Assembly: GCA_041659805.1 (NCBI GenBank)
Contig: JBAZXP010000001.1
Span: 880,224 to 944,223 of the forward strand
Direction of reading: 5' to 3'
Length of the DNA stretch: 64,000 nt
From: Microgenomates group bacterium
Lineage (GTDB): Bacteria > Patescibacteriota > Microgenomatia > Daviesbacterales > UBA10151
The notes below the pieces were generated by a model that saw nothing but the letters and a program-made list of their open reading frames with translations, was not told where the DNA came from and did no database searches. The position numbers were made by a program, and so were the translations under genes. Numbering within the stretch: the stretch's first letter is position 1; each line of letters starts with the position of its first letter. Positions 8,023 to 34,031 of the stretch are shown here, one piece after another.

Positions 8023-8406
8023 TTAGCGTTGTTGACTCTTCTGGCAGTAGCTTCCACCTGCTTCTAAGACAGCGCAGATGTTGTATCCTGTTGTATTAGA
8101 GGTAGCTGATGGAATATCCCAATATGGAGCTGCTCCTGCTAAACCTGTAGGAATAGATCCTGAAGCAAACATTGAACCTGCTGCAGGTGTATAAAGGTTT
8201 GTGCTGGTGTTGTAATTTGCCTCCATAGCGTTAGCAATTGCCTGAATTTCTGATCTTCTGGAAGCATCTCTGGCATTTCTTTGTAAACCTGAGAATACAG
8301 CAGTCCCGATAACAGCTAAAATGGCGATAATTGCAATAACAACCAGAAGTTCAACTAAAGTAAAACCTTGAGGATTTTCAGATGTCTTGGGCAGTAGTTT
8401 TTTCAT
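8023..8406 (-). CDS. type IV pilin (major pilin candidate)
   Basis: MKKLLPKTSENPQGFTLVELLVVIAIIAILAVIG...RRSEIQAIANA. It is a monocistronic small gene, and a TTGACA -35-like hexamer lies upstream. The track ORF extends to 8439. Confidence 0.7.
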   Translation of the reverse strand: MKKLLPKTSENPQGFTLVELLVVIAIIAILAVIGTAVFSGLQRNARDASRRSEIQAIANAMEANYNTSTNLYTPAAGSMFASGSIPTGLAGAAPYWDIPSATSNTTGYNICAVLEAGGSYCQKSQQR

Positions 8407-8454
8407 TTGTTTTATCTTTATCTTTCTAATTATTGACATACAGAATAAACTCTG

Positions 8455-23952: not shown

Positions 23953-26544
23953 ATGTCTAATATAGGTAAAATAGAATTAACCCCAATTGTAGAAGAGATG
24001 CGCAGGTCATACCTTGACTATGCCATGTCTGTTATTGTTTCCCGTGCTTTGCCTGATGTACGAGATGGCTTAAAGCCTGTGCAAAGAAGAATAATCTTTG
24101 TTATGTATGAGCTAGGCCTTTTACATTCTTCAACTTTTAGAAAATGTGCCAAAATTGCAGGTGACACTTCTGGAAATTACCATCCACACGGTGAATCAAA
24201 TGTTTATGGCGCTTTGGTAAATTTAGTGCAGGACTTTTCCATGCGTTATCCATTAATTGACGGTCAGGGAAACTTTGGTTCAGTTGATGGAGACATGCCT
24301 GCTGCCATGAGGTACACTGAAGCGCGTTTGGCAAATATTTCTGAGGAAATGCTCAGAGATATTAACAAAGGTACTGTTGATTTTATTCCAAACTATGACC
24401 AAACAAAAAATGAACCAACAGTTTTACCTGCAGGAATTCCAAATTTATTACTTAATGGTGCGTCAGGTATTGCTGTTGGTATGGCAACTCAAATTCCACC
24501 TCATAATTTAGGAGAGTTAATTAATGCATTGACTTTCATGATTGATCATCCAGTAAAGCCAGAGGTTCAGCAAAAGTCAGCAAATCAGCAAATCAGCACG
24601 TCAGCGGATCAGCAGGAAAAAGACACTAATTCTGCCGATACTCCGACACTCCGACCTACTGACATTCAGATTCCAGCTGAAACTACTGGAAAATTCCGCT
24701 CAGAAGCCACGGTTGAAGATTTATTAGAATTTGTAAAAGGCCCTGATTTTCCAACAGGTGGATCAATTTATGATCAATCAGAAATTATTAATGCTTATGC
24801 AACTGGTAAGGGCAGAATTGTAATGAGGGCTAAAGCAGAAATTGAAGAAGCCAAAAATGGCAGATTTGATATTATCGTGACAGAACTTCCATACCAGGTT
24901 AATAAGGCAACCTTAATCACCAGAATTGCAGAATTACACAAAGACAAAAAAATAGAAGGAATTTCAGATCTCCGGGATGAATCAGATAGAAGGGGAATGA
25001 GGATTGTAATGGAGTTAAAGCGCGATGCAAAGCCCCAATCTCTACTTAATAACCTTTATAAACACACCTCAATGCAGTCAGTTTTTAATGTAAATATGGT
25101 GGCTTTAGTTGATGGAGTACCTCATTTACTACCACTCAAATATATTCTGGAAGAATTTATCACCCACAGACAAATTATTGTCAGGCGTAGATCAGAGTTT
25201 GAATTAGCAGAAGCCAGAGCCCGTGAACATATCCTGGAAGGGTTAAAAATTGCTGTTGATAATATTGATGAGGTTATTGCCACAATCAGAAAAAGCAAGG
25301 ATGCAGATGACGCCAAGACTAATTTGATGACCAAATTTAAGCTAAGTGACTTGCAAGCTCAGGCAATTTTGGACATGCAACTGCGCAGGTTGGCAGCCTT
25401 GGAAAGACAAAAAATTGAAGATGAGCTTAAGATGGTTCGCGAAACCATTGCCTACTTAGTAGACCTCTTGGCACATCCTGAAAAAATACTGGGAGTTATC
25501 AAAGATGAACTGGCAAAAATTAAGGATAAATTTGCAGACGAGAGAAAAACCCGCGTTTACAAACAAAAAATTGGCGAATTCTCTGAAGAAGATTTAGTGG
25601 CAGATGAACAAACAATAGTAACAATCACTGAAGGAGGTTATATTAAAAGACAACCACCTTCAACTTTTAGAATACAAAATAGGGGAGGAAAGGGTGTTTC
25701 TGGTATTACTACCAAAGAAGAAGATGCAGTTTCCCATATTTTCTACACCAAAACATTAGATAATATTTTGTTCTTTACAGATAAGGGTAGGGTTTTCCAA
25801 ATGAAGGTCTGGGAGATACCAGAAGCCTCCAGAATAGCCAAAGGGCAGGCGATTGTTAATTTAATTAACATTGAGCAAGGAGAAAAAATTACTGCTATTT
25901 TAACGCTCCGACAAAAAGATTCAACTAAATACTTATTCATGTGTACTAAATTCGGTAATGTTAAGAAAACAGAAATAGGAGAATACTCTTCTATTCGGAA
26001 AAATGGTTTAATTTCCATTAAACTGGACGAAAACGACGAGCTGGGATGGGTAAATCCGACAACAGGGGAAGACGAGATGATTATTGTGTCCCGTGATGGT
26101 CAATCAATCAGGTTTAGTGAACACGATGTCAGATCTACACACAGAGATACTGCCGGGGTTAGAGGAGTGAAGCTAAATAAAGGAGATACTGTTGTTTCAG
26201 CTCAAAAGATTGATGATCCAAAATCAGATACAGTTTTAGTGGTTATGGCAAATGGCTTAGGCAAAAAAACCATGATCGCCAATTGGACCAGACAAATTAG
26301 AGGAGGAATGGGTGTTAAAGCAGCCCAGGTAACAGAGAAGACAGGCCCAATTATGACAGCCCAGATTGTTGAAAAAGGCGTTGATACATTGGTGCTTACT
26401 TCTAACAAAGGTCAGATTATTAAATTAAATTTAAATGATGTTCCAACACTTCAAAGACAAACTCAGGGGGTAATCCTCATGAGAATGCGGGAAGGTGAAA
26501 AAGTAGCTGCAGCAGCTATTGTTTCATCCAAGGAAAAAGAGTAA
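23953..26544 (+). CDS. gyrA: DNA gyrase subunit A, with an in-frame low-complexity insertion
   Basis: LPDVRDGLKPVQRRI...QIPPHNL...GPDFPTGG and C-terminal beta-pinwheel repeats. There is a ~45-aa Q/S/T/D-rich insertion between IDHP and VEDLLEFVKGPDFPTGG. Confidence 0.95.
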   Translation: MSNIGKIELTPIVEEMRRSYLDYAMSVIVSRALPDVRDGLKPVQRRIIFVMYELGLLHSSTFRKCAKIAGDTSGNYHPHGESNVYGALVNLVQDFSMRYPLIDGQGNFGSVDGDMPAAMRYTEARLANISEEMLRDINKGTVDFIPNYDQTKNEPTVLPAGIPNLLLNGASGIAVGMATQIPPHNLGELINALTFMIDHPVKPEVQQKSANQQISTSADQQEKDTNSADTPTLRPTDIQIPAETTGKFRSEATVEDLLEFVKGPDFPTGGSIYDQSEIINAYATGKGRIVMRAKAEIEEAKNGRFDIIVTELPYQVNKATLITRIAELHKDKKIEGISDLRDESDRRGMRIVMELKRDAKPQSLLNNLYKHTSMQSVFNVNMVALVDGVPHLLPLKYILEEFITHRQIIVRRRSEFELAEARAREHILEGLKIAVDNIDEVIATIRKSKDADDAKTNLMTKFKLSDLQAQAILDMQLRRLAALERQKIEDELKMVRETIAYLVDLLAHPEKILGVIKDELAKIKDKFADERKTRVYKQKIGEFSEEDLVADEQTIVTITEGGYIKRQPPSTFRIQNRGGKGVSGITTKEEDAVSHIFYTKTLDNILFFTDKGRVFQMKVWEIPEASRIAKGQAIVNLINIEQGEKITAILTLRQKDSTKYLFMCTKFGNVKKTEIGEYSSIRKNGLISIKLDENDELGWVNPTTGEDEMIIVSRDGQSIRFSEHDVRSTHRDTAGVRGVKLNKGDTVVSAQKIDDPKSDTVLVVMANGLGKKTMIANWTRQIRGGMGVKAAQVTEKTGPIMTAQIVEKGVDTLVLTSNKGQIIKLNLNDVPTLQRQTQGVILMRMREGEKVAAAAIVSSKEKE

Positions 26545-26555
26545 ATTTAATATAG

Positions 26556-26759
26556 ATGGAAAAAAAATTAACTGCCATAGCTGTTTTTTATTTTGTGATT
26601 GGATTAGTCTTTGCCATTGCCTTCGCTATTTTTTACCACTGGCCAACACTTTCATACTTTAGCCCAAATTTTTATTCAGTGGTCTTAACCTGGCCATTTC
26701 AAATTCCGGGATTTATAACTGATTTTCAATACTACGGCCTAGCCGGAAAATTATATTAA
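26556..26759 (+). CDS. small hydrophobic protein (hypothetical)
   Basis: 67 aa with one TM helix. It overlaps the convergent recombinase gene by 4 nt. Confidence 0.3.
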   Translation: MEKKLTAIAVFYFVIGLVFAIAFAIFYHWPTLSYFSPNFYSVVLTWPFQIPGFITDFQYYGLAGKLY

Positions 26760-27682
26760 GATATATCCTTATTCCCACTATGAAAAGTCTTATGCACATC
26801 TTTTAAGTGTTTATTGGTTACATGAGTATAGATTTGAGTTGTGGAGATATTGGAATGACCAAGCATTTCCTGCACAGACCTGATATCAGCCCCATTAATA
26901 AGCAAATCTGTGGCAAAAGAATGCCTTAAGGTATGTGGTGTAGCTTTTACTAAAATCCCGGCAGCTTTAACATATTTTTCTACAATTCTTTCAATTGATC
27001 GGGGAGTGAGCCTCATTCCTTCACCTCCAGGACTAACATCAACTGTGCCCTGAAACCTGATAAACAAAGGTGAAAAACTATCTTTTCTGTTTTTTAAATA
27101 CTGATCAAGCCAGTAAATTGCAGACTCACTCAAAAATACCACCCTTTCCTTGGATCCTTTTCCGACAACAGAAAACTCTGCCCGGTCTAAATTTATTGAA
27201 TCGCGGTTTAAAGAAGCTAATTCTGCCACACGAAGCCCTGTTGAAAAAAGAGTTTCCAGAAGAGATCTATCACGCAAACCTCCGATTGTATTTGTTTGGG
27301 GAGATTCAAGCAGTTTTTTTAAGGATTCGTCATCGAGAACTTTAATAGGGGAGGCATCAGTCTCACCAAGCTCAATTTGTTCTGCTGAGAGCGATTCTAT
27401 GCCTTGTTTTGACAAATACCTTAAAAAAGCACGCAGGGCAATCATAAAAAAATTTTGAGTAACTCGCTTTAGTGGCTCTTTTGTTTTGGGATCTGTCCAG
27501 CGGTTTAAAAAAAGGCGGTATTTGCGAACTAAGCTTAAGTTAATATCTGATGGTTTAATATCACCGGCAAAATCCAGAAACCGTTTTAAATAATGATCAT
27601 AATTTTGGATTGTTTTTTGAGACGTATTACGCTCAATTTCCAGATATTCCAAAAAGTCTGTTATAGTTGCAGAAAGAGTCAT
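26756..27682 (-). CDS. tyrosine recombinase XerC/XerD family
   Basis: C-terminal HTLRHSFATDLLINGADIRSVQEMLGHSNISTTQIYTHV (R..H..R..Y catalytic residues). It abuts the cohesin gene. Confidence 0.8.
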   Translation of the reverse strand: MTLSATITDFLEYLEIERNTSQKTIQNYDHYLKRFLDFAGDIKPSDINLSLVRKYRLFLNRWTDPKTKEPLKRVTQNFFMIALRAFLRYLSKQGIESLSAEQIELGETDASPIKVLDDESLKKLLESPQTNTIGGLRDRSLLETLFSTGLRVAELASLNRDSINLDRAEFSVVGKGSKERVVFLSESAIYWLDQYLKNRKDSFSPLFIRFQGTVDVSPGGEGMRLTPRSIERIVEKYVKAAGILVKATPHTLRHSFATDLLINGADIRSVQEMLGHSNISTTQIYTHVTNKHLKDVHKTFHSGNKDIS

Positions 27683-28381
27683 TTAGCGTCTTGCCAAAGA
27701 AATAAAACCCAGGAAAGTTAAAACCCCACCGACTGCAATCAACATTAGAGTAGTATTTAAATCCGCGGTACCGGGTAGCGGCGCAGCTGGGGCTCTTGTA
27801 ATCGGAGCTTCTGTTATAGTTGCAGAAGGTGTTGATATTGGCGCTCCTGTACCGCTACAAGCTCCGGTACCGATAACAAAATTACCATTAACAACCTGAT
27901 TTAAAGTTTCTGCCATAGTTCCTACTTCTACAACATTCGAATCAGTGGTTTTGCTTTTATCATTTGCATCGAAATCGAATTTAATTTGAGTTGCCCCTAC
28001 AGGTGCGGTTTCCAGGACTGTAAAATCAACTGTTGCTAATGTTCCTGAGCCTTTATAGGAAGAAGTCGCAGACGCTAAACCTGAAACTAAAACAGTTCCG
28101 GTAGCTGTATCAATGTTGTTACCGGGGTAATCAGGATAAATACTGCCATTATTTATTTTATTTGCAATAAAGCGGGTTGTATCGTAATTTAAAATCACAT
28201 CTGTGCCTGCAGTATCATAACCACCGGTATCCAGTAAAATCTGCAAAGAAAACTTACAATTTTTGTTAAATGTCCCAGTAGCAGGGGAGAGTGAAAGAGT
28301 AGACCCAGCAGCAAACACCACAGCAGGACTCGTAAAAAGAACGCTTATTATGCTTAAGATTGTTAAAATTACTTTTTTCAT
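27683..28381 (-). CDS. cohesin-like domain protein with a C-terminal LPXTG-type (LPGTA) sorting signal
   Basis: Signal peptide. A cohesin-like beta-sandwich segment (DVILNYDTTRF...GTLATVDFTVLETAPVGATQIKFDF). C-terminus LPGTAD + hydrophobic stretch + ARR. Confidence 0.6.
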   Translation of the reverse strand: MKKVILTILSIISVLFTSPAVVFAAGSTLSLSPATGTFNKNCKFSLQILLDTGGYDTAGTDVILNYDTTRFIANKINNGSIYPDYPGNNIDTATGTVLVSGLASATSSYKGSGTLATVDFTVLETAPVGATQIKFDFDANDKSKTTDSNVVEVGTMAETLNQVVNGNFVIGTGACSGTGAPISTPSATITEAPITRAPAAPLPGTADLNTTLMLIAVGGVLTFLGFISLARR

Positions 28382-29007
28382 TGAGTTATTGTTATATCCA
28401 GGTTTTTAACTTCCTCCAAGACATCATCAGAAGTTTTACTGTCAATTAGGTTTGTATCGTTTGTTCTTTTGGGCGCAAACTCAAGAAAAATCTTAGCTTT
28501 CCCTGCAGCCTTAGCCTGAAAAATAATTGTACCAAATAACCCCTTGGGTACAACTCCTCCAACTTTATTGGTAATTCCTGAAACTGTAATAACTCCGTTT
28601 TTTTCATCAACAGAATTAATAGGGTATTCATCATAAAGATTTCCCAAACTAACAGGAGTTTTTGATGCGTTTGAGGCTAAACTCAAAAGGTTGGCATCAT
28701 AATGAATAATCAAATCTGCGCCGGCCGTCATTTTGTTTGAATCTATATTTATTCCGATCGGCACAACCTCACCAATTTTAAATTGAGTTTTAGGTGAGGT
28801 TAAAGAAATAGTATTTGAGTTCCCAGTTTGTGCCACAGAGGTAGATGTTGAGGTTGCGGTTGGTTGGTTTTGGTTCTGTTTGTTAATTGCCTGATAAGCC
28901 CAAACCCCTTCAGCACCTATTATAATCACAACCAAAATTATTAAATAAATTGGCTTAATATTGCTTAGTATTGATGATATTTTTGTTTGTATATTGGACA
29001 GGTCCAT
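28378..29007 (-). CDS. cohesin-like domain protein with an N-terminal membrane anchor
   Basis: N-terminal TM (IYLIILVVIIIGAEGVWAY), a Q/N/T/S linker, then ADLIIHYDANLL...GTIIFQAKAAGKAKIFLEF, which is cohesin-like. Confidence 0.55.
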   Translation of the reverse strand: MDLSNIQTKISSILSNIKPIYLIILVVIIIGAEGVWAYQAINKQNQNQPTATSTSTSVAQTGNSNTISLTSPKTQFKIGEVVPIGINIDSNKMTAGADLIIHYDANLLSLASNASKTPVSLGNLYDEYPINSVDEKNGVITVSGITNKVGGVVPKGLFGTIIFQAKAAGKAKIFLEFAPKRTNDTNLIDSKTSDDVLEEVKNLDITITQ

Positions 29008-29070
29008 TAAATAAAAATCCTTACTTTAATTGAATCACAAAGGGTTGTCTTCTGTCTAGTTTTATCATAT

Positions 29071-29340
29071 TTATTGTGTTGCTGCTGAAGTCGATTCTGG
29101 TGCAGGAGGACCAAGAGGAGAACGCAGTTCAACGGTTAAAGCAGTTGAGCTGGTTGTTCTTTTATCAGGACTAACATTATCTCCTGTAAATGTAATTGGA
29201 TCTGCTGCTGCTTTTGACCTTAGGAACTGTTGCTCTGAAGCTAATTTTACTCCGACAGGAATTACCAGCACCATAATTCCGATAATCAACAGGGTTATAA
29301 TATTTTTCTTATTTAATGTGCGTGTATTATTCTCGTCCAT
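29071..29340 (-). CDS. truncated paralog of the 31879..32583 product (shares the N-terminal TM + QQFLRSKAA..ITF signal)
   Basis: 89 aa that align with the first ~90 aa of the 234-aa protein. It may be a gene fragment. Confidence 0.4.
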   Translation of the reverse strand: MDENNTRTLNKKNIITLLIIGIMVLVIPVGVKLASEQQFLRSKAAADPITFTGDNVSPDKRTTSSTALTVELRSPLGPPAPESTSAATQ

Positions 29341-29342
29341 AT

Positions 29343-31877
29343 TTAATCTCCACTCTTATTATAATTATTTTGTAAGCAAGAGTAATCAACAGAGTTAACC
29401 CTACCATCATTATTTAAATCACCAGGTCTGGTAACATCAGAATTAATTGCCCATTCTCTGGACATCTCACCTTTATCAAAAGCATTAACTTTATTATCAG
29501 GGGAGGAAACTGGATAGATATCTCCTACGTATAGAACAATTTCACCCAGATTAGTCGTTCCTTCTTCTGCCACAAACTCAACTCTTCTACTGACAGTTTT
29601 AGGAGCTTTAAGACTCAACACATAAGTTTTTCCGATTTCAATACCAGGTGTAAAATCAACAGGTTTACCTTCTTTATCAATTTTAATCTTTTTATTAATC
29701 AGGGATTTAGCACCTTCAACCTTTTCTTTGATATCAACCGCTACATTATCCATTGATAAATCACCGCCAGAAGCCAAACAAGTAGTTTTCTCTGTAAAAT
29801 CGACTGTTGTCAGGTCCAGTGAACAATAACCATTTACCACAGTACCATCATCCAAAGTGAGCACAATTTGATGACGACCTCCGGTTAGTTTCTCATTCAC
29901 ACTGGATCTAATCTCATACCTGGTATCATTGTTTGCTCGGACAGCACCAGACTGAGTTGCAGACCCAGAAGAAGTTGTTTCCCTCCCCAAAGCTATCCAG
30001 GAACTAATATTTGCCCGCTTACCTTCAACGCTAATATTCCCAGAACCTTGTTCATCGTGTGGTCCAATATTTATACCTCTGACGTTCACCAATGTTCCGG
30101 TTCCTAAAGGATTAAATGTGCAGGTTGCTGAAGTAACTCTTGGTTGACCACCAATATATTTAATACTTTTTGTAACAACAGGACTTTTATTGCCTTTATT
30201 ATCTCTAAACTGACAAAACAGGTTCAAATTTCCACCAGGGACAACGTTATAAGTAAACTCATAATTAAATAATATAGGGGCGCCAGATCCATCTTGATTC
30301 CTGTACGTCTTCCATTGTGGGGCGCTTGAACCAGCATCATCCTTATCAAAACTTTGTTCTGAACACCTGTAATCCGTGGTATAGGTAGGAATTGTAGGAG
30401 TTGGCGGAGGAGGAGTAGGAGTAGGAGTAACATAAGTAATTTGACGTTGGCTAACTTCACTGGTGGTAGTCTGATCAGATTTTTTAAACTGAACAAATAC
30501 AGTATAAACTTTTCCTCCTACAGGATTGGATAGGGTATGACCAAAGAGTGTTAAAGTATCACTGCCGCCTGCAGGAGAATATGATCTCCAGGGATATGAA
30601 GCGTTTTCAGGATCTCCACCATTAAAAGGCACATCAACAGAATAGCGGTATTGGTAAGTTCTGTCGGTGGAAGATGGGGGATTTGTGACTGTAGGAGCAT
30701 CATTCCTTACAATGATTGTTTTTACACTAGAGCCCCCGCAAGAAGTAACATTACCCGTATTCCCTGGGATACCAGTACCACAATCTATACAATTTATGCC
30801 CGCAGGACAACTCGTAGCCGAAAATGACCATTTACAAAAAGCGTTGCCTGAACATGATATTCTGGCTGAACCATTTACCTCTGAGCTATGTGAAGTTATA
30901 AAAGGACCTACATAATATGTACCTGCAATAGTTGGGGTAAACCCACCTGAAAATGAACCGGAATTAGGGCCAGACCTTCTGTCTGCAGAGTTTGTTAAGT
31001 CTGCAGGCACTGCGCTTACATTACAATAGATATTATTACTACCGCCACCCTCCAAATTACTTGTAGGACAACCTGTCGTATCTCTATTTTGGCGACTCCA
31101 AAAAAGTTTGGTGCTTGCTAACCCTCCGGGAACATTACCCCCATTAACATCAACCCTAAAATCAAGCCTTGTACCAGGACGGACATTATTCGGATCAACA
31201 CCAGAGGTAGTAAGGTTCACTACTGCTGAAATTGGACCTGAACCATCAGTGCTACCTGGAGCAGCATTAGCATCTCTAGAAAACCAAACGTGATTCCATC
31301 TACAATTACCCCAATCGTCTGTAGATGATGTAGGTTTCCTAATAGCTTTAATTTCTATAGACTGGTCATTAGAAGGTGTTGCAAAAGTTCCTTGCTGAAT
31401 AGGAATTCCACAATCGTTACCTAAATTATCAGTCAGTTTATGAAACCATTTGGTTAACTTAAAATTAGGATCATCAACATGTATTGACACTCTTGTTGGT
31501 ACACCATCCGCTGTACCCAAAGGAATACTTATACGTTCAAAAGTATAAAAAGGCTCATCATGGACAAAAGTACTACCTTTTCCAGAAGGGTCAGGGTTAC
31601 AGCCACTTGAAAATGAATCACCATCAGTTCCTTGACTCCAAGTCACCTTATAAGTTGGACCGCCTTGACAAGAAAGGCCTCCGCAAGAACCGCCAATTAT
31701 TTTTCTTTGGTTAGGACAACTACCATAAAGTGATGAATCCTCATCTGTCACTTCACCAAGTAAAACAGCTCCCTCTCGTGAACCGTTCCAAACAGCTGAT
31801 GCTTTTTGGGCAGAAAAAACAAAACAGACTGTTAATATTAAGCTAAATAAATATGTAAATACTTTAATTTTTTTCAT
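29343..31877 (-). CDS. large secreted cysteine-rich protein with a C-terminal dockerin-like Ca-binding repeat
   Basis: Sec signal peptide (…SAQKASA|V), a PTPTPPPPTPT linker, and C-terminal GDLNNDGRVNSVDYSCLQNNY, which matches the dockerin repeat consensus. Confidence 0.6.
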   Translation of the reverse strand: MKKIKVFTYLFSLILTVCFVFSAQKASAVWNGSREGAVLLGEVTDEDSSLYGSCPNQRKIIGGSCGGLSCQGGPTYKVTWSQGTDGDSFSSGCNPDPSGKGSTFVHDEPFYTFERISIPLGTADGVPTRVSIHVDDPNFKLTKWFHKLTDNLGNDCGIPIQQGTFATPSNDQSIEIKAIRKPTSSTDDWGNCRWNHVWFSRDANAAPGSTDGSGPISAVVNLTTSGVDPNNVRPGTRLDFRVDVNGGNVPGGLASTKLFWSRQNRDTTGCPTSNLEGGGSNNIYCNVSAVPADLTNSADRRSGPNSGSFSGGFTPTIAGTYYVGPFITSHSSEVNGSARISCSGNAFCKWSFSATSCPAGINCIDCGTGIPGNTGNVTSCGGSSVKTIIVRNDAPTVTNPPSSTDRTYQYRYSVDVPFNGGDPENASYPWRSYSPAGGSDTLTLFGHTLSNPVGGKVYTVFVQFKKSDQTTTSEVSQRQITYVTPTPTPPPPTPTIPTYTTDYRCSEQSFDKDDAGSSAPQWKTYRNQDGSGAPILFNYEFTYNVVPGGNLNLFCQFRDNKGNKSPVVTKSIKYIGGQPRVTSATCTFNPLGTGTLVNVRGINIGPHDEQGSGNISVEGKRANISSWIALGRETTSSGSATQSGAVRANNDTRYEIRSSVNEKLTGGRHQIVLTLDDGTVVNGYCSLDLTTVDFTEKTTCLASGGDLSMDNVAVDIKEKVEGAKSLINKKIKIDKEGKPVDFTPGIEIGKTYVLSLKAPKTVSRRVEFVAEEGTTNLGEIVLYVGDIYPVSSPDNKVNAFDKGEMSREWAINSDVTRPGDLNNDGRVNSVDYSCLQNNYNKSGD

Positions 31878-31878
31878 C

Positions 31879-32583
31879 TTAGTGCTGTGGCGGTACCGTC
31901 AATAAATCGTTCGGCCCACAACGTGGGTTTTGCGGAATAGTAGCAACCGGATTACCAGTACAATAAACCATACCATTAAGTGTCTGTGCGTTAGCTACAA
32001 TGTAATAACGTTGACTATCATTTGGGTATACCCATGTACCAGAAGCTGTACATGTACTGGCTCCGCCACAATCATTATTAACCGCTACCTGAGTCCAGGA
32101 ACTTGCCAGTGTTAAATTAGATGCTTGATTAGCTACATATACCCATGCTTTTCTGAGATTTACTCCTGTTGCAGTAGTGGTATATGTATTATTTGGTCCG
32201 GAAGATACAGAAGCAGAAAGTCCTGGAAACGGAGAAGGAGAAATTGGAGCTGAAGTTGGTACTTGTGTCACACTAGCTGTGGGTACTGTGGTAGTAGTTG
32301 GATTTGCTGTCGCAGTAGGGGTTACAGAACCGGGTTCTCCATATGGGCCAAAAGGAGAATGAAAAGCTATATCTACATTAGGCGAAGTAGTTCTACAACC
32401 GCTAGTATCACAAGTAACGCCTGTCCCACCAAAAGTAATTGCCTCACCTGCAGCCCTGGAGCGAAGTCTTTGTTGCTGTTGAACTAAATAAACGCTTAGA
32501 GGAACTGCTACAACTACTAAGATTAAAACAACAGCAGCTATGATATTTCTTCGAGTTAAAAAGGATTTTATAGAGTCATTCAT
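31879..32583 (-). CDS. surface protein with a conserved N-terminal TM + QQQQRLRSRAAGEAITF motif, a T/P-rich linker and a Cys-containing C-terminal domain
   Basis: First gene of the cohesin/dockerin operon. It is a paralog of the 89-aa product. Confidence 0.55.
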   Translation of the reverse strand: MNDSIKSFLTRRNIIAAVVLILVVVAVPLSVYLVQQQQRLRSRAAGEAITFGGTGVTCDTSGCRTTSPNVDIAFHSPFGPYGEPGSVTPTATANPTTTTVPTASVTQVPTSAPISPSPFPGLSASVSSGPNNTYTTTATGVNLRKAWVYVANQASNLTLASSWTQVAVNNDCGGASTCTASGTWVYPNDSQRYYIVANAQTLNGMVYCTGNPVATIPQNPRCGPNDLLTVPPQH

Positions 32584-32635
32584 GTAAAGTAGGGCATTAG
32601 ATCCAGATTAGAGCAAAAGGACAACGATTGTCAAG

Positions 32636-32772
32636 CACAGTTCAGCAAATCAGCAGTTCAGCAAATCGGCAAATTCAGCGAGTCAGCAAGACAGAATGTC
32701 AAATGAGTGGTTTATATTGTACGACAAGACATCAGTAGATCAGCATGTCGGCGAATCGGCAAATTCAGCAGA
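32636..32772. repeat. iteron-like degenerate direct repeats (cagcaaatc[a/g]gcaaattcagcgagtcagcaag family) in a divergent promoter region
   Basis: At least five tandem or dispersed copies are visible. Inverted copies lie at 33163-33203 and 33961-34030, and a related copy inside gyrA at 24568-24616. Confidence 0.6.
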
Positions 32773-32801: not shown

Positions 32802-33152
32802 ATGATAAAAGATGTGACAGATTTGGAGGTTTACAAAGAATCAATGTATTTGTTGCATGAAGTAAATACTTTAACAAGTTTAATCTCACAAACAGAAAAG
32901 GATTTGATCTCGCAGATTAAAAGAGCCTCGAGATCTATTCCTGCAAACTTAGCAGAAGGGTTTGCAAAAAAATCTTCTACAAAGGAATTTAAGCGCTACC
33001 TGATGATCTCCTTAGGCTCAAGCGATGAACTTATAACTCATTTCAGGGTCTTAATAATAATTAATCCAGGTTTACAAAGTCAGTCCGAAGATATTTTAAA
33101 AAAATACCAAATTTTATCTAAAAGACTTAACGTCCTATACCACAAATGGTAG
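32802..33152 (+). CDS. four-helix-bundle protein of the 23S rRNA intervening-sequence / DGR Avd (accessory variability determinant) family
   Basis: SQIKRASRSIPANLAEGFAKKSSTKEFKRYLMISLGSSDEL matches the family signature (SQ..RAa.Si..NIAEG..r.s..ef..fl.iA.GS..E). Confidence 0.75.
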   Translation: MIKDVTDLEVYKESMYLLHEVNTLTSLISQTEKDLISQIKRASRSIPANLAEGFAKKSSTKEFKRYLMISLGSSDELITHFRVLIIINPGLQSQSEDILKKYQILSKRLNVLYHKW

Positions 33153-34031
33153 TTTTTATTAATACTGACTCGCTGAAACTCCGATCTCCCGATACTCTGA
33201 AGCTCCGTAGCCACGAGACCCTAGAAGGCCCCTAAAACGGCCGGAAAGCAGGGAAGTGGTATGGTAAGCTATCTAAAGATTAGGTTGTCCTAAAGCCCCA
33301 AACTCATTAGAGGCAAAACATAAGTAAGACGAAAAATTAGTGGACAAATTATCAGGAAAAAGTGGCAAAAATAGCACGAATAAAACCGGCTTAAAAATCT
33401 ATAAAAAAATCATTCATGCGCAAATTTATGGATTTATACCTCTTCCCTTAAGCGTGTGTCCGTCGTCGCATAAGATACATTGTACGACTAGATAATTGGG
33501 AAGTATAATCAAAATGCATATTCCCGGGAGTGGAGTTAAACATACACTAAGAGAGGGGCGTGCTTCTGTTCCTCTTAACCAGTCCTTGCCATAGATATGA
33601 ACAGAAGCTATTTACTCTCTCCTCCATTCATGTAGATCCTCTTTTTTCACGCGTGAAAACTCAATTAGCACTAACTATATCATTTTGACAGTATTAGCCT
33701 CAAAACAGAGTACTCTACCCTCAAAAATATTAAAGAAAATTGCTATTTTTTGAGGCTAAATCGAAGCTAAAAATTAAACCCAGAAGAGTACTATACCCTA
33801 TAGTTTTAGCTTCAAAGTTATCCACAGTTTATTCTCTATCTGTATCAAACTATATCAACTATACTACCCTATAGTTTTTATGTTCGGGTTTTGTTCAATA
33901 CTATCAAACTATATCATTTAAACCTAAAATCACCATTTCTCTCTCCTCCACTTTCTTTCTGATTTTGCCGATTCTCTGATACTTCGACTCTTGCTGATTC
34001 TCTGACCCCGCCGATACCCCGATATTCTGAA
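33153..34031. other. ~880-bp ORF-free region rich in repeats and stem-loops; possible ncRNA or decayed element
   Basis: No ORF of 60 aa or more in any frame. Stem-loops at 33719-33755 and 33763-33813. Direct repeats aactatatca (x3), taccctatagttttt (x2) and agagtact[c/a]taccct (x2). Terminal inverted copies of the 32636-32772 repeat family. Confidence 0.4.

Follow-up and report, generated by a model that had tools for sequence, protein, structure and literature searches.

What does a compact cluster of genes for cohesin- and dockerin-like surface proteins do in a Candidate Phyla Radiation (CPR) bacterium, and what does the Xer recombinase gene beside it contribute? The question was raised by a 64-kb stretch of DNA (hereafter the window) on a 1.13-Mb contig of a Microgenomates-group metagenome-assembled genome (MAG), whose nearest relative is a Candidatus Daviesbacteria MAG. 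The first-pass annotation had assigned positions 26756–32583 a minimal cellulosome-like architecture, not expected in a small-genome lineage, that might mediate attachment to a host or substrate. With a probability of slightly above 60%, we read the cluster as a non-cellulosomal cohesin–dockerin surface-display system core to Candidatus Daviesbacteria (Microgenomates, CPR).

Organisation of the operon

The region comprises six co-oriented, tightly packed open reading frames (ORFs), all confirmed on the minus strand. From the first gene to the last, with the X-module–dockerin (XDoc) module given separately, they are:

31879–32583, minus strand: 234-aa protein, first operon gene (ORF; N-module, P/T-rich linker and C-terminal domain)
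29343–31877, minus strand: 844-aa secreted dockerin protein (ORF with Sec signal peptide and C-terminal XDoc)
29352–29879, minus strand: XDoc module, residues 667–842 of the 844-aa protein (PF00404, profile and Foldseek)
29071–29340, minus strand: 89-aa stand-alone N-module protein (ORF of the N-module family)
28378–29007, minus strand: cohB, 209 aa (PF00963)
27683–28381, minus strand: cohA, 232 aa (PF00963, AlphaFold2 and Foldseek)
26756–27682, minus strand: Xer-family tyrosine recombinase, 308 aa, last gene (Phage_integrase)

Intergenic spacing ranges from −4 nt (overlap) to +63 nt, and no terminator-like sites were found within the six-gene block. The start codon of the recombinase gene immediately adjoins the stop codon of cohA; the XerC/D-like recombinase described earlier as abutting the cluster is a directly adjacent enzyme of the Xer family. 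Hydrophobicity analysis gave signal peptides on the 844- and 232-aa proteins, an N-terminal transmembrane helix on the 209-, 89- and 234-aa proteins and a C-terminal transmembrane helix on the 232-aa protein. No further cohesin, dockerin or N-module genes were found elsewhere in the 64-kb window. Public annotation already names both cohesins and leaves the dockerin and N-module proteins as 'hypothetical'.

Two single-cohesin proteins with membrane anchors

The cohesin and dockerin assignments proposed earlier withstood a profile search. All three proteins scored above the Pfam gathering scores (24.1 bits for cohesin PF00963 and 22.9 bits for dockerin PF00404), with 33.3 bits for cohA, 25.5 bits for cohB and 23.2 bits for the full 844-aa protein. 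As these margins are thin, the assignments were tested at the family level. The comparative set, taken from one genome per species, comprised 66 loci, every one of them in a MAG of Daviesbacteria or Microgenomates, and was built with our own ORF calling and hidden Markov model (HMM) searches. More than 417 cohA homologues were found, and nearly all of 120 among the matches listed bear a precomputed PF00963 domain. Among the cohB orthologues, 52 of 59 matched PF00963 (best E-value 3e-14). The two proteins are paralogues with 27% identity (E = 6e-10).

Searched against PDB sequences, the cohA profile gave only a marginal cohesin match (4ums, E = 0.009), and structure modelling with fold comparison was therefore used. 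For the AlphaFold2 model of cohA, with a predicted local distance difference test (pLDDT) value of 73, the top 50 Foldseek matches in the PDB were all cohesins, with E-values from 1.7e-9 to 1e-4 and template-modelling scores (TM-scores) to the target of 0.6–0.76. Among them are the non-cellulosomal cohesin of Archaeoglobus (2xdh) and the cohesin-like protein of C. perfringens (2jh2); identity to characterised cohesins is low (12–20%). The model indicates the nine-stranded flattened β-sandwich (jelly-roll) fold of cohesins for cohA; for cohB the same fold is predicted through its paralogy to cohA.

Both proteins carry a single cohesin and differ in how it is anchored. In cohA, a cleavable signal peptide is followed by the cohesin, a P/T-rich linker, the motif LPGTA, a C-terminal transmembrane helix and a terminal ARR. 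In cohB, an N-terminal transmembrane anchor (approximately residues 20–41) precedes a Q/N/S/T-rich linker and the cohesin. The LPGTA, hydrophobic stretch and ARR that had been described as a sorting signal are indeed present at the end of the 232-aa protein. However, the combination is confined to the clade of the window and its closest relatives, and its identity as a sortase signal is therefore unproven. A basic tail is missing from most cohA orthologues, which end in …TLPPAGSEQLTFTLAIVGSVLTILGILGLALL or GKGPGTPELTF…, and the family consensus consists of LPPAG, LPQSG or GKGPG and a transmembrane helix ending in LALL (LPPAGSEQLTF–helix–LALL or GKGPG…).

No NCBIfam sorting-signal model matched cohA. 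Nor was a sortase found in the window and about 1.2 Mb of related loci, searched for the TLxTC motif and by phmmer with an S. aureus SrtA query. One complete Microgenomates genome has been reported to encode a sortase (PMC7143001). The sequences thus describe cohA as probably membrane-anchored at its C-terminus, with a family consensus that differs from the canonical sortase signal; sortase processing is unproven.

The 844-aa protein and its X-module–dockerin dyad

The largest product of the operon starts with a Sec-type signal peptide (…QKASA|V) and contains 21 cysteines, 15 of them within residues 1–479. Its Cys-rich, lineage-specific head (~29–479) has no match in Pfam or NCBIfam. Two Ig-like/IPT β-sandwich domains form a stalk (~480–660), and an X-module-like Ig domain with a dockerin completes the protein (~667–842). 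The dockerin proper spans residues 794–837 (nt 29367–29498), and the motif GDLNNDGRVNSVDYSCL noted earlier was confirmed at the C-terminus of the protein. As an isolated module, the XDoc tail scored 28.3 bits against PF00404.

Word-indexed homology searches with the 844-aa protein returned only 4 and 7 relatives, and locus-based HMMs were needed to reveal the family. Among the orthologous C-terminal modules, 63 of 65 matched PF00404 (best E-value 1e-12). Against solved cellulosomal dockerins, a profile of the orthologous tails aligned across the two Ca-loop segments (CelS dockerin 1daq, 2e-9); it matched many further dockerins and XDoc chains as well. The second Ca-loop/F-hand, DLNNDGRVNSVD, is canonical; the first, DIYPVSSPDNKVNAFD, is degenerate and lacks the D1/N3 ligands both in the window and in the family consensus. 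Two dockerin helices are predicted at residues 799–811 and 829–838.

The model of residues 480–844 (pLDDT 75 overall, 47–70 in the dockerin) consists of three β-sandwich domains and, after them, two helices. The best Foldseek match is CipA Coh-X-Doc (4e-10; 3kcp and 4fl4, the latter two being CipA Coh9-X-Doc). The C-terminal 165 aa align with the type II XDoc chains 2b59_B, 4wi0_B, 5m0y_B, 5g5d_B and 5k39_B over ~164 columns, with TM-scores of 0.59–0.65 (0.62–0.65 for 2b59_B, 4wi0_B and 5k39_B) and E-values of ~1e-5. Structure prediction thus matches the cohA cohesin and the C-terminus of the 844-aa protein to solved cohesins and X-module–dockerin dyads, respectively. At the moderate confidence of the model, the C-terminus is predicted to be a type II-like X-module–dockerin dyad.

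Conservation across Daviesbacteria and co-variation of cohB and XDoc

The locus has a constant order: YebC–RuvC–DUF5656–non-coding element–one to four variable genes–XDoc protein–cohB–cohA–Xer. Adjacency was counted in the 48 loci with at least 4 kb of sequence upstream of cohA. In 44 of the 48, cohB adjoins cohA, and Xer lies immediately downstream of cohA in 47. In 40 of the 48, the XDoc gene is immediately upstream of cohB; the window and the two relatives closest to it have it one gene farther upstream. It is missing in three loci, two of which (L035 and L057) keep only cohA–Xer.

The GC content of the operon genes (0.36–0.43) is close to the window mean of 0.366. The operon is core to Daviesbacteria, and the near-average GC together with the conserved synteny rules out a genomic island, which the earlier annotation had left for such a check to decide. 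As the operon is core and syntenic in ~66 Daviesbacteria species, it is the rule in this small-genome lineage and not the surprise it had been taken for.

Conservation is uneven within the operon. Across loci, the large protein is conserved only at residues ~480–844, especially 660–844. Only the window and the nearest relative have the same head (68% identity); the next-nearest relative, with GyrA still at 87% identity, carries a different one in its place. Between the window and the nearest relative, the operon proteins are 59–78% identical, compared with 90–96% for GyrA, Xer and RuvC (90% for Xer).

Pairwise distance matrices over 45 loci were then compared. Distances of cohB and XDoc were correlated (r = 0.63), also when Xer was controlled for (partial r = 0.63, p = 0.001). 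The correlation of cohA with XDoc was much lower (r = 0.18; partial r = 0.16, p = 0.06); it was 0.46 for cohA with Xer and 0.08 for XDoc with Xer. Mean p-distances were highest for cohB and XDoc (0.6), compared with 0.38 for cohA and 0.30 for Xer. Consequently, cohB and XDoc behave as a co-evolving or co-transferred unit, and cohA and Xer as a vertically inherited core. Because cohB and XDoc distances co-vary, the comparison points to cohB as the cognate socket of XDoc, although linkage alone could yield the same signal.

Some relatives (L058, L062, L065 and L034) have a tandem pair of paralogous XDoc genes that are similar in length (e.g., 943/939 aa and 961/961 aa). In another (L031), the 975-aa XDoc protein also bears a cohesin, and extra dockerin proteins and adaptor-like cohesin-plus-dockerin proteins occur in the same cassettes. 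Given these genes, such loci appear to encode more elaborate, adaptor-like assemblies than the window.

These comparisons also bear on an explanation without any cohesin–dockerin pairing. The cohesin-like proteins might be structural components of the envelope (S-layer or cell-wall β-sandwiches) with no dockerin partner; the dockerin-like tail would then be a Ca-binding stabiliser, and the adjacency of the genes would reflect co-expression. The 12–20% identity to characterised cohesins, the E-value of only ~0.009 in the PDB profile search and the degenerate first Ca-loop of the window dockerin all suit this explanation. Against them stand the strict co-occurrence of the cohesin pair and the XDoc gene over ~45 species, the specific co-variation of cohB with XDoc, a dyad architecture typical of high-affinity type II complexes, and the extra canonical dockerins and cohesin-plus-dockerin proteins in the same cassettes. 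We therefore consider the envelope explanation quite improbable.

Cargo of the system

To characterise the cargo, we surveyed 106 segments from 60 other loci; 60 of the segments were heads, the remaining 46 accessory or tail segments. Recognisable domains were IPT/TIG (14), cohesins (8), pectate-lyase-like β-helices (6) and dockerins (6), with further ConA-like lectin, discoidin, SdrD-B, fn3, CBM60, TSP1 and CARDB modules. A single segment matched a glycoside hydrolase (GH5/Glyco_hydro_cc). In the surface proteins of the window operon, Pfam and NCBIfam searches found no catalytic domains. The domain content argues that the system displays binding modules and is not an enzyme complex.

A genuine cellulosome or mini-cellulosome, in which polysaccharide-degrading enzymes with dockerins would be scaffolded by the cohesins at the cell surface to hydrolyse a substrate, is accordingly very improbable. 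Cohesin, dockerin and XDoc-type anchoring do belong to the cellulosome toolkit, and a few cassette proteins elsewhere carry CBM60, CBM4_9, pectate-lyase-like β-helices or, in the one case above, GH5/Glyco_hydro_cc; Microgenomates have also been reported to encode more glycoside hydrolases than other CPR bacteria (PMC7143001). However, the window operon encodes no catalytic domain, only 1 of the 106 segments matches a glycoside hydrolase, and each protein has a single cohesin. The working definition of a cellulosome calls for a scaffoldin with at least two cohesins and for dockerin-fused glycoside hydrolases (quoted in PMC13487519). Of the architecture proposed earlier, the cohesin and dockerin modules therefore stand, but the cellulosome does not, with one cohesin per scaffold and no dockerin-fused glycoside hydrolase. 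The attachment role suggested at the same time agrees with a non-enzymatic cargo.

A probably system-specific N-terminal module

In the 234-aa and 89-aa proteins, the N-terminus is formed by a common module (N-module) with a KKN-type n-region, a transmembrane helix, the motif QQQxL(K/R)S(K/R)AA and a mini-domain of ~35 aa (ITFxG…LxSPLGPP). In the 89-aa protein, the transmembrane helix is followed by QQFLRSKAA and ITFTG…LRSPLGPP. In the 234-aa protein, the KKN-type n-region and transmembrane helix are followed by QQQxLRSRAA and ITFxG…SPFGP (N-module HMM, E = 5e-29). The latter protein has no match in Pfam or NCBIfam, and its Cys-containing C-terminal domain of ~150 aa showed no significant relation to the 844-aa head. 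It is 63% identical to the orthologue in the nearest relative, compared with 90–96% for the flanking housekeeping genes.

Across the loci, the module was found in 96 proteins from 52 loci, always N-terminal, and many of these proteins are stand-alone ones of 80–100 aa. The 89-aa ORF, earlier called a fragment, corresponds to a conserved gene of this size in many relatives and is, judging from its family, a minimal N-module member. The module also heads many accessory and XDoc proteins in relatives; the window XDoc protein carries an ordinary Sec signal peptide in its place.

An exhaustive search of 1.84 billion representative proteins returned 239 N-module clusters at E ≤ 1e-3, with lengths of 75–1321 aa. 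A general CPR leader was rejected, as just 239 representative clusters were found; given so few among 1.84 billion, the N-module appears to be specific to this system.

Proposed mechanism of surface display

Domain identities and folds, topology signals, the structure of the operon, its conservation and the co-variation are all shown above; from them we infer physical cohesin–dockerin binding, a partner cohesin and an adhesive role. Two single-cohesin proteins would be held on the cell surface, cohB by its N-terminal transmembrane helix and cohA by a C-terminal transmembrane helix that follows an LPxxG-like motif. Sec would export the 844-aa protein, and its XDoc, consisting of the Ig-like X-module and the Ca-binding dockerin, would dock Ca-dependently into a cohesin, most likely that of cohB and possibly that of cohA. 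Once docked, the protein would extend its Ig/IPT stalk outward from the cell, together with the fast-evolving, exchangeable Cys-rich head, most likely an adhesin- or lectin-type binding module for a partner cell or polymer surface. The 234-aa and 89-aa N-module proteins may be accessory components of the same assembly.

Several points weigh against this mechanism. Within the full protein, the window dockerin barely exceeds the Pfam threshold, and it has a degenerate first Ca-loop. The co-variation of cohB with XDoc could stem from co-transfer of adjacent genes and not from physical co-evolution. The XDoc proteins of many relatives carry an N-terminal transmembrane module and are perhaps already membrane-anchored, and a simple 'anchoring' role for the dockerin is accordingly less convincing. 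For the window head, in which no known domain can be recognised, the binding function is extrapolated from other loci.

The Xer recombinase and a candidate dif site

The recombinase has a Phage_integrase domain (1.8e-42) and an N-terminal SAM-like domain and is catalytically complete by sequence. Among NCBIfam models it passed the XerA-type cut-off (221.6 bits; cut-off 220), and its XerC and XerD scores of 248 and 244 bits were both below the respective cut-offs. Two conserved non-coding features lie upstream of the operon, and a probable promoter lies closest to it:

33463–33490, minus strand: candidate dif-type Xer core site (28 bp, 11-6-11)
33208–33305, minus strand: block B, conserved non-coding element of ~100 nt (nhmmer and alignment)
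32600–32640, minus strand: probable operon promoter (read from sequence)

The 880-nt 'non-coding' stretch upstream of the operon is conserved. Using nhmmer, an element of ~300 nt was found directly after DUF5656 in 37 loci, with its most conserved core at 33463–33490. This core reads TAGTCGTACAA TGTATC TTATGCGACGA, i.e., two 11-bp inverted arms and a 6-bp spacer. It is single-copy in the window (0 expected by chance) and occurs exactly once in each of 28 other loci (~20 kb each), in every case in the interval from DUF5656 to the cassette. Its arms hardly vary but its centre does (TGTATC, TGTAGC, TATAGC, TGATAA…), which is the behaviour of tyrosine-recombinase core sites. The one variable arm position showed no RNA-stem-like covariation. 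The site resembles the dif of E. coli (GGTGCGCATAA TGTATA TTATGTTAAAT), with AATGTAT·TTATG shared in the core.

The site lies 5.8 kb upstream of xer in the window, ~1.1 kb in the minimal loci and 1–10 kb overall, with the surface operon in between. We regard it as a candidate dif of the adjacent Xer, which is most likely the housekeeping chromosome-dimer resolvase, with its probable dif just upstream of the operon. Plus-strand GC skew at third codon positions was approximately −0.17 to −0.20 for genes of both orientations to the right of ~34 kb, and near zero and mixed to the left, with no sign flip.

The intact site and a second tyrosine recombinase are perfectly mutually exclusive. Among 41 loci with DUF5656, 26 have an intact site and no second recombinase, and 15 have a second recombinase of ~335 aa and only the left arm. 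These 15 loci, in which the right arm is non-conserved, are L003, L016, L020–L022, L024, L027, L028, L033, L041–L044, L049 and L068. Neither right half-sites nor cassette-flanking repeats or att sites were found in them. A degraded second recombinase in the 880-nt gap upstream of the window operon was sought by tblastn, which returned nothing.

An arms-only scan of IMG/VR viral contigs returned 51 contigs (L070–L120) with the core GTCG·ACAA-N6-TTAT·CGAC. The unconstrained positions of these viral sites are strongly biased to the chromosomal consensus, and their centres include TGTATA. Their flanks resemble phage sequence in carrying terminase, portal and major head genes; in the fetched stretches, no integrase was found near the site except on one contig. 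Only the core site is common to the viral contigs and the chromosomal loci, which suggests dif-mimicking phages. The 51 contigs may represent Xer-exploiting phages of CPR bacteria resembling integrative mobile elements exploiting Xer (IMEX).

Possible cassette turnover at the dif-like site

The position of the operon raises the possibility that Xer adjacency is functional. In such a recombinase-serviced variable-surface-antigen locus, Xer acting at the dif-like site would acquire or exchange cohB–XDoc cassettes, by analogy with IMEX-like integration or with Xer-driven switching of surface proteins in Mycoplasma; the display mechanism would stay in place beside it. In ~29 loci, the operon is bounded exactly by a single conserved dif-like site and xer, and the minimal loci L035 and L057 consist of dif–cohA–xer only. 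The unit of cohB and XDoc evolves independently of Xer and cohA, and close relatives differ by swapped heads. Where a second recombinase is present (15 loci), the right arm has degenerated, and phage contigs carry the same core site with no nearby integrase.

However, no second site, pseudo-site or half-site brackets the cassette in any locus, and no secondary matches of at least 12 bits to the dif position weight matrix, and thus no flanking pseudo-dif, were found in the loci. The two-recombinase loci lack cassette-flanking repeats. The genes are co-oriented without silent copies, a single site precludes inversion-type phase variation, and block B lies between the site and the cassette. Ordinary homologous recombination between the conserved sequences on either side (block B or the N-module, and cohA) would account for the swapping as well. 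Exchange serviced by Xer is therefore an attractive but unlikely addition, suggested by position and without a footprint. The display mechanism does not need Xer, although the dif-adjacent position may favour cassette turnover. An integron was also considered and rejected: there are no repeated sites between or flanking the cassette genes, and the recombinase is distal and co-oriented.

A more speculative scheme, which we hold to be improbable as a whole, combines these elements into a 'socket-and-plug' adhesin at dif/xer. Here, cohA would be a conserved socket, and co-evolving cohB and XDoc with its exchangeable head would set the attachment partner. Cassettes would be gained at a dif-adjacent hotspot, possibly in Xer-dependent (IMEX-like) events tied to dif-mimic phages, and the N-module would act as a new sorting or assembly signal, e.g., as a ligand of cohA.

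Upstream sequences and other features of the window

The probable promoter of the operon consists of a TTGACA box at 32629–32634, ~45 nt upstream of the first start codon, and TAATCT ~18 nt further on, ~20 nt upstream of that codon. A strict consensus scan missed this pair; the block CTGTGCTTGACA…CTCTAATCT…TAATGCCCTA is kept in the nearest relative. The promoter is preceded by 8-nt-periodic GCTGAnnT repeats.

Block B separates the dif-like site from the operon; its conservation extends over 37 loci but not to the viral contigs, and a weaker conserved non-coding stretch lies at 33790–33925. Searches of Rfam at gathering thresholds and at E ≤ 1 returned no match for the conserved non-coding element. 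For block B, RNAalifold gave no consensus fold, and in helices proposed by hand, covariation did not exceed that of shuffles. Block B could be a regulatory or accessory recombination sequence.

A four-helix-bundle gene (PF05635, 23S rRNA intervening-sequence protein/Avd-like) lies at 32802–33152 on the plus strand; the nearest relative has a GIY-YIG gene there. Around it, the 15-mer ATCGGCAAATTCAGC occurs twice in direct and once in inverted orientation (3 matches; 0.14 expected), with repeats at 32642–32769 and 33959–33979. Just upstream of the operon promoter, the 15-mer lies within the GCTGAnnT repeats. The gene and repeats may be a small selfish insertion or operator sites. The Avd-like gene prompted a search for a diversity-generating retroelement, which was rejected, as neither a reverse transcriptase ORF nor template/variable repeats were found in the 26–35 kb interval.

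Elsewhere in the window, the gene at 8023–8439 (minus strand) encodes a type IV pilin-like protein with the prepilin motif …GFTLVELLVVIAIIAIL…, another candidate attachment structure. GyrA, encoded at 23953–26544 (plus strand), has an apparent Q/S/T/D-rich low-complexity insertion at residues ~205–250 (…QQKSANQQISTSADQQEKDTNSADTPTLRPTDIQIPAETTGKF…), just before the conserved GPDFPTGG motif.

Comparison with known systems

No description of cohesin–dockerin systems in Daviesbacteria or Microgenomates was found in the literature searched. By analogy, we regard the type III cohesin–XDoc anchoring of R. flavefaciens ScaE, with CttA and ScaB, as the closest functional counterpart. ScaE has a single cohesin and a C-terminal surface anchor and receives the dockerin of the non-catalytic CttA from the same cluster (PMC2930009). 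Similarly, cohA and cohB are anchored single-cohesin proteins, and the 844-aa protein is non-catalytic and ends in an X-module-like Ig domain and a dockerin. Unlike ScaE, which has a canonical LPXTG and is sortase-linked, the proteins described here have transmembrane anchors, and their LPxxG-like motif is not conserved. They also lack the enzyme-bearing ScaA/ScaB scaffoldin layer, carry a hypervariable head in place of a cellulose-binding module, include the extra N-module, and are encoded between dif and xer in a CPR lineage with ~1.1-Mb genomes.

The type II interaction of C. thermocellum (CipA XDoc with SdbA, OlpB and Orf2p) provides the best structural matches through its XDoc chains and likewise holds a large secreted protein by surface cohesins. 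In contrast, its anchors are SLH domains on proteins with several cohesins, its dockerin protein is a nine-cohesin enzyme scaffold, and identity is only 15–21%. Non-cellulosomal cohesins are represented by Archaeoglobus fulgidus 2xdh and the cohesin-like/FIVAR-Doc toxin complexes of C. perfringens; compared with these, the present system forms one conserved operon with evidence of paired evolution and is core to a class-level CPR lineage.

As for the recombinase, single-recombinase Xer/dif systems (XerS/difSL, XerH/difH and archaeal XerA/dif) share with this locus one Xer, here of XerA type, and a single 28-bp 11-6-11 site near the recombinase gene. The phage contigs bearing the core site recall dif-integrating IMEX elements. 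Unlike known Xer/dif systems, the locus has surface-protein genes between the site and xer, over 1–10 kb, and no flanking pseudo-dif.

Implications for CPR biology

The candidate CPR dif beside a single Xer gene, mirrored on phage contigs, offers a route to chromosome-dimer resolution and to mobile elements that exploit Xer in these bacteria. The operon also brings a minimal-genome lineage and non-enzymatic cargo into the range of operon-paired cohesin–dockerin assembly, with signs that cohB and XDoc evolve as a pair. Recognition of and attachment to partner cells by CPR/Patescibacteria are poorly understood beyond type IV pili, and a lineage-wide cohesin–XDoc display with swapped heads is a candidate determinant of host or substrate specificity in Daviesbacteria.

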